64,000 nucleotides of DNA from Blastocatellia bacterium (GCA_963765495.1 CAVXWP010000001.1:608001-672000), one strand, 5' to 3'; numbered from the stretch's first letter, positions 934-64,000 are shown. Numbers and translations: made by a program. Notes: generated from the sequence alone by a model not told the origin.

Positions 934-3900
934 TCATCTCAGTTTTGTCGTAGGATCTCCGAGCAATACCCAGGTCCGGCGCACGTCCGGATCGGTTATC
1001 GCAGATTTCGCACGTCTCGTCGCTTCGCCGAGCGTCAATCCTTCGCCGCCGAACAAGCGCCGGTACGCTTCCTGATTCATCAGCCATTGATCGCCCGGTT
1101 GTGTAGTCCCTGTCGAAGCCCACACGGCTACTGCTCCTCCCTGTGTTGACTTCAACATAGACTCTGCAAGAGAGTCGACCGACGGGTCTTCAAAGTACCC
1201 GTTCAGACACGTCATGGTGATAAAGAGCGACAACTGATTTCTGTTTGTCAGCGCGCTTGCGTCTCCCGAGGTCAGGATATTGCCTCTCCACAGATTCAAC
1301 GATCCGTGACCTGTGTAGTTGACTATCTTTGCACCACGATTGATCGCGTCTATGATCTGGCCCCTCGTGGTCGCGTCGTCTGTGATACCCCGATCTATCT
1401 CTTCGACTCTGAGCGAGCCGGGGATCAGCGCCCTTAAGGCCGTGTTCATCTCCGCGAAGTTCATCCCATCGTTGCTGTCGGCCACAAGCACTACGCTGCT
1501 TCCCGCGCGGCTATTGTCATAGCCTACGATCTTGCCGACCATAATTGATGCTTCCTGCGCGGTTCTAAACGGCAATCGCCCAAGCGCCACGTTCGCTATC
1601 GCGTCACCATCCGGGTCCACGAGCGCATCGTCGCTTGCGGTCTCCATCAACGCCGTGTCTACAAGCTTCGTAGGCACGAGGTCTGTCACCCCGTATCCGA
1701 GATAGTCTCTCGGGTCGTAGCTTGCGTCTCCGGCAAGCAAGACGTGAGTCGGCTTCCGCTTCCAGCTTGTTATGGCGTAATTCAGGAAGTCTTCAACCGC
1801 CTGCGCGCTCTTGTTTCCGAAGTTGAACTCGTCATAGATGTCTTCGACCTTTATCACACCGACGGCCATCTTCTGGCTCTGCCTGAGCGCCTTCAACTGA
1901 TCAAGCGCCCCCGCGTACTGCTTCGGTGTGATTATCAGGAAATCGGCCCCGTTCGAGGTTTGTCTCAAGCTCGACGGTTCGTTTGCTTCGGCAGATGCCA
2001 CCTGCCTCACCTGATCGGAGGCATAGGCAAGCATGGTTCTCTGCCCCGATCCCTGCGCGAGCACCGTGATCGAGTAGCTGCCTTTTTGATTCACAACCGT
2101 CCCGCTCACTTCCTGTACAACGTTCGGGTCGGTCACATCCATTACTTTGATCTGGCTGCTCGTGAACCCGCCGATTGTCACCGTCTGTTTGGCATCGGCC
2201 GTCAGTCTGAGGGAGTTGTTTTCAGCCGCGTAGAGATGCCGATAGCTGATGCGTGTGTAATCGATAAGGTTCACATCGGTCCCGCCGTTGAGACTCAGCA
2301 GGCTTATGACATTGTCGCCGTCTCTCAACTGCGACTGCAAAACAGGAATCGAGAGTGTGCCCTCTTCCTGCCCGTTGAAGCTCAACTCGCCTACACTCAC
2401 TCCATTGAGTTGGATGCTCACCCGGTGCGGAACCTGCGTCACACCTTGCACGGCGACTTCAATCAATGCGTTTGATTCAACCGACCTATCCAACTGTCTG
2501 AGAGTCAACGTCTGATCCGCCGATGATGACGAGGTTATGACCGCGCCAAAGAAATTCTCTTTATCGCCGTTTCTAAGCGACGAGAAATAGATCGTGCGGT
2601 CACGGCGTTCGACCGTATAGCCGAATCCGCTCGGCCCGGCAACAAGCGTCTTGCCTGACGGTGCGGTAGCGATCCTCTTGCCTGCCGATGCGCCTTCGAC
2701 GAGCCAGTAGACCCGCGTGTCAGTTGAAGGCGTATCGAGCCCGAGTCCATAAAATTCGATTGAATCCGAGGCATCAAATCGCCCGTCACCTTCTCCGTTG
2801 ACCCGGATAGGCACTTCAACCCCGCCTACGAACAATTGCAGGTTGCGCGGGTTGACCGTCGAAGCAAGACCCGATTGCACGAGTTCAGGCTGAGTGACGC
2901 GATACCACGCTTCGTTCTTGACCGACAGTTTGACCGCTGGTTGAGCGGCAAGAGTCGATTGGAGACTGACAAGCGCCGGGTGACAACTGAGCCGGAGAGG
3001 CCGCGCGACGTAACGATGTCGAGCCGGTTCCAAGGCTGAGTTGAGAGGCGTGCTGTCCGAGCCTCGCAAGGAATGTGGCGCGGGATTCGGAGATGGATTT
3101 GCTTTGACTCGACGTGATGTCAATCGGACCATAGAAATTGGACCTGCCCTTGAGATCAACATCTTCGATCCAGTACCTGACACCCTTTCCACCCGATGAA
3201 GGAATATCGAGCCACGCGTAAGAAAGCCCCGCATTGAGCGCGGTGTCAGCGCCCGCAACCAGAGCCGATCCGGCGATCAGTTGAGGCGTTATGCGGACGC
3301 GCTGTCCGTTCTGCTCGCGGTACACATTGTAGCCGAGGTTCTGGACTTCGTTGGCCGTCTGCCACTCGATTGCAACGCGCCCGTCGTCGTAGCCCGTGGC
3401 TTTGGCCGTATCGAGTTTGACGGCGGTCGGCACGGTTATGATGATCAGGTTGTTGCCGGTCAGGCTCTGCCCGTCCGGGTTTATGATCGTCACATTTTGC
3501 GTGCCGGTAGAGGCGGCGGTCGTGTTGAGATTCAGCGTCACCGAGGTCGGGCTGTTATAGGTTACGCTGTTGACTATCACTCCGCCCGTTACGGTCGCGT
3601 CTATCCGGCAATTAAAGCCCGCGCCCGGATCATAGAAACCTGATCCGTTGACCACGGTGCCGGTGATCGTGACATTGAAAGGAAGTCTCATTCTGAGGGA
3701 CGGCAAACGGCGTGGACATAGAGGGAGTCGCCGGAGGCGGAGCCAGCAGCTTCACAGCCCTCACGCCATAAGTGTTTGTCCCGTTGCAGTATTCCTGAAT
3801 GGTCCATATCGTCATGTCGTCGCAGGGGTCGAGGCTCGTGTACGAGTAATCGCCCCAGCGGCGTCCGCCCCCCCCGCCCGGATCGCTCGGCGGATTGTAA

Positions 3901-61923: not shown

Positions 61924-63501
61924 ATGCGAAGCTCCTTGCTCGTCTGTCTTATCCTTGTATTGACCTTCTCACCCGTCCTTGCCCAACAGCACGGACGGCA
62001 ATACTCCAAAGCGTCTACCCCTTCGACCGATGGCTCTCGGGCTCTGCCCCGCAGTTCTCCCGAGCGTCAGGGAATCTCATCATCGGCCATTCTGGCGTTT
62101 GTCGAAACCGCAGACAGAGAGATCGACGCGATGAACAGCTTTATGCTGGTGCGGCACGGGCAGGTCGTCGCGGAGGGGTGGTGGGGACCCTATGACGCGA
62201 AGACCCCGCACATCCTGTACTCATTAAGCAAGAGCTTCACCTCAACGGCCGTCGGGCTTGCAATCGCGGAAGGGAAATTAAGCCTCGATGACGAGGTGTT
62301 GAAGTTCTTCCCCGAAGATGCTCCGGCCGAGCCTTCGGCCAATCTCAAGGCTATGCGGGTGCGTGATCTGTTGCGAATGGCCACGGGAAACCAGACGGAA
62401 GCCCAGATAAGGCAGGCCGAACCGGGATCAAAGGATGAACCGTGGACGAAGAGGTTTCTGGCGCACCCGGTACCGTTCAAGCCGGGTACACACTTTCTCT
62501 ATAACTCGCCTGGCACGTATATGCTATCGGCCATCGTACAAAAGGTGACCGGCATGACGGTGCTTGACTATCTCCGTCCGAGGCTTTTTGAGCCGCTGGG
62601 CTTCGAAAATCCAACCTGGGTGACGAGCCCGCAGGGGATTTCGGCGGGCGCCTACGGTCTGTCGGTGCGCACGGAGGAAATAGCACGCTTTGGACAGTTG
62701 TACCTCCAGAAAGGCATGTGGAAGGGTCGGCAACTCATACCCGCAGCGTGGGTCGAGGAAGCGACCGCGCGGCAGACTTCGAACGGTTCTTCTCCCAAAA
62801 GCGATTGGGATCAGGGCTATGGTTACCAGTTCTGGCGCTCGCGTCACAACACTTATCGAGGCGACGGGGCATTCGGGCAGTACTGCATCGTCATTCCTGA
62901 CCTTGACGCCGTTGTGGCGATCACAAGCGGCGTGCGCGACATGCAGTCTGTGATGAACCTGGTCTGGGATATGCTTCTTCCGGCGATGAAGCCGAATCCC
63001 CTGGCGGAAGATGAGGCAGCCCGCCGGAGACTTGAGGCGAAGCTCGCAGGTTTGACGGTTCGTCTCCCTTCGGGCCAGCCCACTGTACCGCTCGCCGCGC
63101 AGGTATCACGGAAGTGGTATGAGTTTTCCGAAAACGACCGTGGCATCCAGGCGATGGCGTTCGATTTCAACTCGGGTACGCCTGCGCTCATGGTTCGCAC
63201 GTCCGAGGGGGAAACGCGGACCCTGATCGGGGTCGGGTCCTGGACGAAAAACCGTGAGGGCTTCGCAAACGGTCTCGACCGATTCCTGAGCGTGCCGACC
63301 CACCCCGAGGTCGCCGCAAGCGGGGCCTGGACGGCAGGGGATACCTTCACCGTCAAACTGGTTCTGGACGAGACGCCGTTTTATTCTATGCTGACGTTTC
63401 GATTCGACGGCGACCGGCTCCTGCTCGATGCGGAACACAATGTCGCGTTCGGCCCTACGAAACTGCCGCAACTGATCGGGCAGGCAGCCTCGATCAGGTA
63501 A
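61924..63501 (+). CDS. Secreted serine hydrolase, beta-lactamase/class C-like family
   Basis: SLSK (SxxK), YNS (YxN-like), YGYQFW, RGDGAFGQ. Confidence 0.93.
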   Translation: MRSSLLVCLILVLTFSPVLAQQHGRQYSKASTPSTDGSRALPRSSPERQGISSSAILAFVETADREIDAMNSFMLVRHGQVVAEGWWGPYDAKTPHILYSLSKSFTSTAVGLAIAEGKLSLDDEVLKFFPEDAPAEPSANLKAMRVRDLLRMATGNQTEAQIRQAEPGSKDEPWTKRFLAHPVPFKPGTHFLYNSPGTYMLSAIVQKVTGMTVLDYLRPRLFEPLGFENPTWVTSPQGISAGAYGLSVRTEEIARFGQLYLQKGMWKGRQLIPAAWVEEATARQTSNGSSPKSDWDQGYGYQFWRSRHNTYRGDGAFGQYCIVIPDLDAVVAITSGVRDMQSVMNLVWDMLLPAMKPNPLAEDEAARRRLEAKLAGLTVRLPSGQPTVPLAAQVSRKWYEFSENDRGIQAMAFDFNSGTPALMVRTSEGETRTLIGVGSWTKNREGFANGLDRFLSVPTHPEVAASGAWTAGDTFTVKLVLDETPFYSMLTFRFDGDRLLLDAEHNVAFGPTKLPQLIGQAASIR

Positions 63502-63667: not shown

Positions 63668-63697
63668 TTGACTCTGCTCGCCGCCGAATGCTATACG
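63668..63697 (+). promoter_or_regulatory. Candidate sigma-70 promoter for the leader and downstream operon
   Basis: TTGACT-18 bp-TATACG with an extended TGn; the -10 element is imperfect. Confidence 0.5.
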
Positions 63698-63708
63698 TTG
63701 ATTGTCGT

Positions 63709-63825
63709 ATGGAAGACTATAGGCTTATGAACCGAATGCTTTGTGGTATCTGTTGCATCTGTTGTTGCGCGCCAAAGGCGCGCAGGCTGAAGCCTATAGT
63801 GGAGGTATGCTATCGTAAAAACTGA
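63709..63825 (+). CDS. Cysteine-rich attenuator leader peptide MEDYRLMNRMLCGICCICCCAPKARRLKPIVEVCYRKN
   Basis: Hand translation; 6 Cys codons in 9 positions (63742-63768); alternative in-frame ATGs at 63727 and 63736; too short for the ORF track. Confidence 0.8.
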   Translation: MEDYRLMNRMLCGICCICCCAPKARRLKPIVEVCYRKN

Positions 63826-63857
63826 GTAATAGACTCAGATTATAGAGTTACCCAAAA

Positions 63858-63897
63858 CCCACTATTGGCTTTAGCCGATGGTGGGTTTTTCGTTTTT
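63858..63897 (+). terminator. Intrinsic terminator (attenuator 3:4 helix) in the 5' leader
   Basis: CCCACTATTGGC-TTTA-GCCGATGGTGGG followed by TTTTTCGTTTTT, ending 18 nt before the downstream ATG. Confidence 0.88.
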
Positions 63898-63915
63898 GCG
63901 GATGTAAACGATACG

Positions 63916-64000
63916 ATGATTGGGGAAGCGAGAAAAACCGGGAAGGTGTATTTGATCGGCGCGGGGCCGGGCGATCCGAAACTGCTTACGATCAAAGCGG
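63916..64000 (+). CDS. cobA: Uroporphyrinogen-III C-methyltransferase (CobA/SirA/CysG-type tetrapyrrole methylase), 5' end only
   Basis: MIGEARKTGKVYLIGAGPGDPKLLTIKA carries the GxVxLxGAGPGDxxLLT signature; runs off the window. Confidence 0.8.
   Translation, partial: MIGEARKTGKVYLIGAGPGDPKLLTIKA

Follow-up and report, generated by a model that had tools for sequence, protein, structure and literature searches.

The stretch of DNA analysed here (the window; 64,000 nucleotides of a Blastocatellia bacterium, G000:C1:608001-672000) ends in the start of a cobA gene, which is preceded by a short ORF with a run of cysteine codons and by a hairpin with a U-tract. The locus raises the question of whether these elements form a switch that adjusts transcription to the supply of cysteine and, if so, how the position of a ribosome on the ORF would be passed on to the folding of the RNA. 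A first-pass annotation had read the locus as a complete cysteine-sensing attenuator. The promoter-like site, the ORF encoding CGICCICCC, the four pairing segments and the U-tract on which this reading was based were all found where they had been placed. As judged by comparison with relatives, the earlier reading appears to be essentially right and the feature seems real and conserved. We consider it probable that the element is a ribosome-mediated transcription attenuator which senses charged tRNA-Cys and gates the cobA-cysH-cysC-sulfite reductase operon. All the features of the window described below are on the plus strand.

The genes behind the leader

The start of cobA (63916-64000), encoding uroporphyrinogen-III C-methyltransferase (TP_methylase), was recognized by Pfam and NCBIfam scans with a score above the NCBIfam cutoff. 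The gene runs past the window end, and 19 kb of downstream sequence (locus L002) were also examined. The gene order after the leader is cobA-cysH-cysC followed by a gene for a sulfite/nitrite-type reductase. Both cysH (phosphoadenylyl-sulfate reductase, PAPS_reduct; NCBIfam) and cysC (adenylyl-sulfate kinase, APS kinase) scored above their cutoffs. The fourth gene encodes a 536-aa siroheme reductase (NIR_SIR) which best matches NirA-type models and scores under the NCBIfam cutoffs for nitrite reductase and sulfite reductase alike. We read this protein as a sulfite reductase from its gene context, not from its score; the mycobacterial ‘NirA’ adjoining cysH is a sulfite reductase. The earlier annotation had stated that its reading would be lost if the downstream genes were concerned with cobalamin only. 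The genes actually found there (cobA, cysH, cysC and the NirA/Sir-type siroheme reductase) all belong to the pathway of the amino acid which is predicted to be sensed, and by its gene content the operon serves sulfur assimilation, not cobalamin.

The gap between the U-tract and the cobA ATG (63916) is only about 20 nt, so that all transcription into cobA passes the terminator. Upstream of the leader, the window contains a 525-aa ORF (61924-63501), which adjoins the leader in none of the relatives' loci; the leader thus travels with cobA. At the other end, the reductase gene is followed by a leuA-ilvBNC-leuB-gltB block past a 170-nt gap (L002 4776-4945; C1:675776-675945), in which neither a Leu/Ile/Val-rich leader ORF nor an obvious terminator was found. 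The branched-chain operon may be co-transcribed with the reductase gene or may be under different control.

Codons and pairing segments in the leader

The promoter-like site read directly from the sequence (63668-63697) consists of a −35 element TTGACT (63668-63673), an 18-nt spacer and a −10 element TATACG (63692-63697). The pattern TTGA[CT]-N16-19-TA... occurs at the equivalent place in 21 of the 22 orthologous leaders. A consensus promoter scan of the 1-kb region returned no site, the −10 element being without the final T. The conserved −10 element sits 30 nt upstream of the conserved start codon ATG 63727, and the predicted promoter would give a 5′ leader of roughly 20-30 nt ahead of the ORF. 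No clear Shine-Dalgarno sequence was found upstream of this ATG.

In its conserved form, defined by ORF listing and by comparison with relatives, the leader ORF (63727-63825) comprises 32 codons and the stop codon TGA (63823-63825), and its product is MNRMLCGICCICCCAPKARRLKPIVEVCYRKN. The 38-codon ORF of the first-pass annotation corresponds to an in-frame ATG at 63709 which does exist, as does another at 63688 (45 codons). Both lead to the same TGA but neither is conserved, and the start codon common to the relatives is ATG 63727. Codons 6, 9, 10, 12, 13 and 14 form a directly readable Cys cluster (63742-63768; four TGT and two TGC). Altogether, 7 of the 32 codons encode cysteine, six of them among codons 6-14, as compared with 0.69% of codons in the long ORFs of the same genome. 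The share of TGT among the Cys codons is 4/6 in the cluster vs 30% in these long ORFs. A single tRNA-Cys (GCA) gene, located at the very start of a contig, was detected in the genome by aragorn.

Segment 1 (ACTATAGGCTT, 63716-63726) abuts the conserved start codon on its 5′ side and is the anti-antiterminator partner of segment 2 (AAGCCTATAGTGG, 63790-63802), which may pair with either segment 1 or segment 3. Segments 3 (63859-63871) and 4 (63874-63885), also read directly, are the arms of an intrinsic terminator (63854-63897) identified by a terminator scan and by comparison, with its stem at 63854-63889 and its U-tract at 63886-63897. The scan described a 16-pair stem with the tail TCGTTTTTGC; over the 1-kb region it gave 2 sites vs 1.4 ± 1.3 in shuffled sequences and is not significant by itself. 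Helix 1:2 is a perfect 11-bp duplex (63716-63726 with 63790-63800) and helix 2:3 pairs at 12 of 13 positions in the window. Formation of 2:3 excludes 3:4, and 1:2 excludes 2:3. The pairing scheme of the earlier annotation (1:2, 2:3 and 3:4 as mutually exclusive helices) was thus confirmed. Its parts list was nevertheless incomplete, since two conserved hairpins had been overlooked. Hairpin P (GCGCGCC-AAA-GGCGCGC, 63767-63783), recovered by RNAalifold, overlaps the last Cys codon, and hairpin H (CTGAG-7 nt-CTCAG, 63822-63838) holds the leader stop codon TGA. Past hairpin H, the heptamer TATAGAG (63842-63848) repeats the core of segment 1 and is replaced by TAAAGAG in relatives whose segment 1 contains TAAAGG; it is a possible additional partner of segment 2, in a part of the alignment that is too poor for pairs to be counted. 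Pairing of the 3′ arm of hairpin P with the GCGCC found in the terminators of many relatives was considered by eye and rejected, since the terminator of the window is without GCGCC.

A DNA search of 40 relatives combined with tblastn placed the element next to a cobA orthologue in 21 relatives' loci in addition to our own. In all 22 loci, a Cys-rich short ORF of the form M.RM..C.CCICCCAP.AR.A.PLVE... lies upstream of cobA. The covariance model R1 was built from these 22 leaders. A larger set consists of the 41 distinct leaders that have an ATG at the start columns of the model; three other rows were excluded, one being misaligned and two being reverse-strand terminator hits. All 41 leaders contain 3-8 in-frame Cys codons. 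The number and the spelling of these codons vary, and the run is always in frame with the conserved ATG. The spacing between the ATG and segment 2 is 61-70 nt throughout the set, the length is exactly 32 codons in 25 leaders, the stop codon starts 20 nt past the end of segment 2 in 25 leaders, and the distance from it to the terminator arm is 25-31 nt in most leaders. The reading frame past hairpin P differs between lineages: it is PLVE-like in 26 leaders, AFSGG/AFDGG-like in 12 and of another type in one, while two leaders stop upstream of segment 2. The latter two belong to family f9, and their stop codon lies 5 nt before segment 2. Despite these frame differences, the nucleotides of segment 2 are among the most conserved columns. 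These comparisons indicate that the constraint on the Cys run is one on codons and that on the distal part of the ORF one on RNA, as expected for a leader peptide rather than for a functional micropeptide.

A functional Cys-rich micropeptide (metal- or redox-binding, or the precursor of a modified peptide) with its own promoter and terminator, neighbouring cobA by chance, is accordingly very improbable. The unit does carry a promoter-like site and a terminator of its own, and the CCICCC motif is conserved. On the other hand, the frame of the C-terminal half changes from lineage to lineage, the ORF is shortened to 19 codons in one family, the 5′ arm of the terminator has a conserved competitor, and the genes that immediately follow the element always belong to sulfur assimilation (among them, in other families, sat and a cysK-like gene).

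The conservation of hairpins P and H and helix 1:2 as RNA, together with a constraint on segment 2 at the nucleotide rather than the peptide level, would also suit a terminator switch controlled by a ligand or a protein, with the ORF being incidental or merely modulating. We hold this reading to be quite unlikely. All 41 leaders have the Cys run in frame with the conserved ATG even though the number and the spelling of its Cys codons change, the conserved structures are plain helices without a conserved unpaired pocket, and none of the seven matches obtained in the Rfam scan with E up to 10 was near threshold (the best one reached 25.1 bits vs a gathering score of 60).

For the predicted attenuator, the pairing of the individual helices was scored in alignments A1 and A2, the latter being a model-fitted alignment of 44 distinct rows which leans towards the covariance model. 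RNAalifold recovered hairpin P and the terminator unaided, with compensatory changes in 10 of the 22 pairs. The terminated conformer, scored as 1:2 + P + H + 3:4, had 85.1% of its cells paired in A1, with double changes in 19 pairs; none of 500 shuffles scored as high, and slid controls had 32-51% of cells paired. In A2, 88.4% of the cells were paired and 21 pairs were changed on both sides. The terminator 3:4 was the most uniformly paired in A1 (96.2%, and 96.3% in A2, with 5 and 7 double-changed pairs, respectively), followed by hairpin P (92.9% and 97.6%; 5 of 7 pairs double-changed), hairpin H (76.0% and 80.1%; 3 of 5 pairs) and helix 1:2 (70.5% and 76.1%; 6 of 11 pairs in A1). The competing antiterminator 2:3 had 78.8% (A1) and 79.0% (A2) of cells paired, with slid controls at 22-57%. 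It shows six compensatory pairs (e.g. GC:21 / AU:12 and AU:28 / GC:5), and its two central positions are mostly unpaired. The two kinds of conservation for which the earlier annotation had suggested looking in relatives are thus present: the Cys codons are kept, and both 2:3 and 3:4 carry compensatory changes.

Compared one sequence at a time with 200 shuffles, the duplex 1:2 was better than 190 or more of them in 15 of 22 sequences (21 of 42 with wider windows) and the duplex 2:3 in 18 of 22 (23 of 42 with wider windows). The median duplex energies in the 42 sequences were −15.6 (1:2), −15.8 (2:3) and −26.2 kcal/mol (3:4). These moderate counts indicate that 1:2 is weak or absent and 2:3 weak in several genera.

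Folding and the proposed switching mechanism

The leader RNA (63704-63900) folds with −75.4 kcal/mol (z = −4.86), and none of 200 shuffled sequences was as stable. The minimum free energy (MFE) structure includes helix 1:2, the GC hairpin P and the terminator, and the Cys tract forms only small local pairs in it, with no pairing to the cobA start region. Pairing of the mycobacterial type, in which the Cys tract pairs with a downstream Shine-Dalgarno sequence and there is no terminator, was not found here: the pairs are local, and a terminator stands before cobA. These results bear on the idea of translational attenuation, in which the Cys ORF would act either on ribosome access at the start of cobA or through polarity, without the hairpin and its U-tract being a regulated terminator. 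What speaks for it is precedent, since the only poly-Cys uORFs with an experimentally shown function act on translation (bioRxiv 10.1101/834739), and Cys leader peptides without terminators have been reported from Actinobacteria (PMC1262725). Apart from the MFE structure, this idea has to face the 16-pair GC-rich stem with a U-tract, conserved in pairing at 96%, between the ORF and cobA, and the conserved segment 2 which competes for the 5′ arm of the terminator. We therefore regard it as improbable.

Regulated termination was further explored by folding transcripts of increasing length. Helix 1:2 is present in the unconstrained MFE structures of transcripts ending at 63805, 63840 and 63856. 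With segment 3 complete and segment 4 still to come (end at 63872), little energy separates the 2:3 conformer (−53.1) from the 1:2 conformer (−50.5). With the end at 63900, the combination of 1:2 and 3:4 (−75.4) is favoured over 2:3 (−69.9). Such near-degeneracy at 63872, with a strong terminator coming next, provides in these model folds what a kinetic switch requires. The check by masked folding which the earlier annotation had proposed did not reproduce the switch: ribosome-footprint masks alone left the terminator in the full-length equilibrium fold, with a 3:4 probability of at least 0.98 under every mask. It follows that the outcome must be decided kinetically, as it is in other attenuators.

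The trp/his-like layout that had been claimed for the locus holds for the exclusive helices. It does not hold for the control codons, which lie between segments 1 and 2 and not inside segment 1. A ribosome stalled on the Cys codons (63742-63768), which are 3′ of segment 1 (63716-63726), leaves that segment unmasked. Translation to the stop codon had been thought to run over segment 2 and thereby to allow termination; this alone does not account for termination, as segment 2 ends at 63802 and is no longer covered by a ribosome at 63823. With the stalled ribosome covering neither segment 1 nor segment 2, control would be exerted by steric exclusion or by ribosome queuing.

We propose the following course of events. 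Without a ribosome, helix 1:2 and hairpin P would form once segment 2 has been made, 3:4 would pair, and transcription would stop at 63886-63897. With ample Cys-tRNA, the ribosome would reach the stop codon at 63823 and cover roughly 63808-63838, its edge being about 5 nt from segment 2. In this position it would fill the 56-nt loop needed by 2:3, so that 2:3 could not form, 1:2 would re-form behind it, and 3:4 would terminate transcription. If Cys-tRNA is scarce, the ribosome would stall at codons 6-14, inside the 63-nt loop of 1:2, and would melt hairpin P. Segment 2 would then remain single-stranded and capture the emerging segment 3, and RNA polymerase would read through into cobA. It can be speculated that hairpin P is also an RNA polymerase pause signal which synchronises transcription with translation. 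Most likely, the stalling ribosome thus switches the sulfate-assimilation genes on under cysteine shortage. On the sequence evidence, the mechanism would in principle be the classical one of the textbooks; what is special in Acidobacteriota is that it would serve cysteine, that the control codons are arranged differently and that there are two extra conserved hairpins.

A more far-reaching view can be put forward only tentatively, and we find it somewhat doubtful. It would make the element a distinct attenuator architecture, with the ribosome as a movable steric wedge that blocks the anti-antiterminator when stalled in the 1-2 loop and the antiterminator when it is at the stop codon in the 2-3 loop, while the GC hairpin times RNA polymerase against the ribosome. 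On this view, Acidobacteriota would moreover possess an unpublished cysteine regulon extending across the phylum, with separate control of cobA-cysH-cysC-sir, sat and cysK by related poly-Cys leaders, and the element would represent one of its branches.

Relation to known systems and distribution

Classical leader-peptide transcription attenuators are known from E. coli and Salmonella (the trpL, hisL, pheL, thrL, leuL and ilv leaders); an outline of them is also given in the introduction to bioRxiv 10.1101/834739. The element shares with the trpL/hisL type a short ORF rich in codons for the end product, an intrinsic terminator located ahead of the structural genes, the exclusive helices 1:2, 2:3 and 3:4, and termination as the proposed default without translation. 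It differs from this type in that it is predicted to sense cysteine and occurs in Acidobacteriota, that the control codons occupy the loop separating segment 1 from segment 2 while segment 1 abuts the start codon, that there is a conserved GC hairpin behind the Cys codons, and that the stop codon is in a hairpin of its own midway between segments 2 and 3, where the terminating ribosome leaves segment 2 unmasked. The T-box and S-box (SAM) leaders of sulfur genes in Firmicutes bind uncharged tRNA or SAM directly and do not need a translated ORF. They resemble the present leader in the decision between terminator and antiterminator ahead of sulfur amino-acid genes, whereas our leader has an ORF and no Rfam match. 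To our knowledge, the regulation of sulfur assimilation is essentially unknown in Acidobacteriota, a dominant phylum of soil.

The closest published counterparts are actinobacterial. In mycobacteria, polycysteine leaderless sORFs of the Ms5788A type were described by Canestrari et al. (bioRxiv 10.1101/834739; Mol Microbiol 2020). According to that paper (bioRxiv 10.1101/834739), translation is controlled by pairing of the Cys tract with a downstream Shine-Dalgarno sequence, transcription termination was shown to be uninvolved, and uORF attenuation for cysteine had previously been undescribed. The likeness consists in consecutive Cys codons upstream of sulfur or cysteine genes and in a response to cysteine via ribosome stalling, which is reported there and predicted here. 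The conserved terminator/antiterminator pair sets our leaders apart from these sORFs, and the predicted 5′ leader would distinguish them from leaderless transcripts. The mycobacterial poly-Cys ORFs, cited as a precedent in the first-pass annotation, are translational and without a terminator, and are thus an analogy and not the same device. A 2026 M. tuberculosis paper also cites the mycobacterial cysteine genes as being under translation attenuation. Candidate Cys leader peptides before cys/cbs operons of Mycobacterium, Propionibacterium acnes and Bifidobacterium longum were proposed by Seliverstov et al. (2005; PMC1262725). No conserved terminator hairpins were found in that study, and the mode of regulation was left open, with Rho proposed as a possibility. 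Those candidates resemble ours in that a short ORF with Cys runs precedes genes of cysteine synthesis and in that they were found by comparative genomics; the conserved terminator hairpin distinguishes our leaders from them. No published terminator-type cysteine leader attenuator was found in the full-text literature outside subscription journals and Russian-language comparative genomics, which is not a proof that none exists. If the present reading is true, cysteine would join the amino acids for which a terminator-type attenuator follows the classical trp/his logic, and the leader could be used as an inexpensive sequence marker to find cysteine-regulated operons in metagenomes. Its topology, with control codons outside segment 1, would be a natural variant for studying how ribosome position is converted into RNA folding.

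Covariance model R1 detected exactly one copy in our genome. It was also applied, with strict filters under which the lack of a hit is no proof of absence, to a class sample and a phylum sample of 151 genomes each. In the class sample, one copy was present in 33 of the 34 other genomes of the same Blastocatellia family, and the matches elsewhere were in families f9 (2/9) and f10 (1/1), with no hits in f2 (0/4), f3 (0/1), f4 (0/38), f5 (0/38), f6 (0/14), f7 (0/3) and f8 (0/8). The phylum sample yielded only two further hits, both weak and both in family f41. The presence of the leader goes with the similarity of cobA: a Cys ORF and a terminator were found at 9 of the 10 cobA loci with at least 67% protein identity and, within 420 nt upstream, at none of the 17 loci with 57% or less. 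The tenth locus of the former group (L075) has neither a Cys ORF nor a terminator in the 441-nt stretch examined, although its contig begins 494 nt before the gene, so that the contig end does not account for the absence. When our own genome was searched for short ORFs with CC.CC or CCC followed by a terminator, a strong terminator (−24.6 kcal/mol) was found only at the cobA leader, and the other 10 hits had weak hairpins. Five more frames with Cys runs picked by eye in this genome were discarded, lying inside or against larger frames.

The hits outside the family differ in the genes that they precede and in their form. In f10 (L067, about 2616-2780, minus strand), the leader ends with IRCCCC-stop, and a terminator stands between it and a PALP (cysK/cysM-like) gene. 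In f41 (L063, about 1576-1720, and L064, about 1576-1716), the leader MKYSRQDQVHCYCICCC... is followed by two tandem terminators and then by an ATP-sulfurylase (sat) gene. The position of the f10 and f41 leaders before sulfur genes leads to the prediction that poly-Cys terminator leaders gate several steps of sulfur assimilation in the phylum. The f41 ATP-sulfurylase ORFs (PF14306 + PF01747) match profile positions 2-120 and 2-125 of 212 and may be cut or frameshifted. The f9 leaders (L065, 1046-1327; L066, 994-1322) are a low-GC version (30-31%), in which a 19-codon ORF stops inside hairpin P. As this ORF ends 5 nt before segment 2, the terminating ribosome would mask segment 2 there in the classical manner. 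Between segment 2 and the terminator, the f9 leaders have an AT-rich spacer of 145-193 nt with direct-repeat-like, TATA-rich text. At one of the 21 relatives' loci with the element upstream of cobA (L012, genome G016), a gene for a hemerythrin-domain protein (PF01814, 1709-2263) lies between the Cys leader with its terminator and cobA, and it would be under the same predicted cysteine control as cobA.
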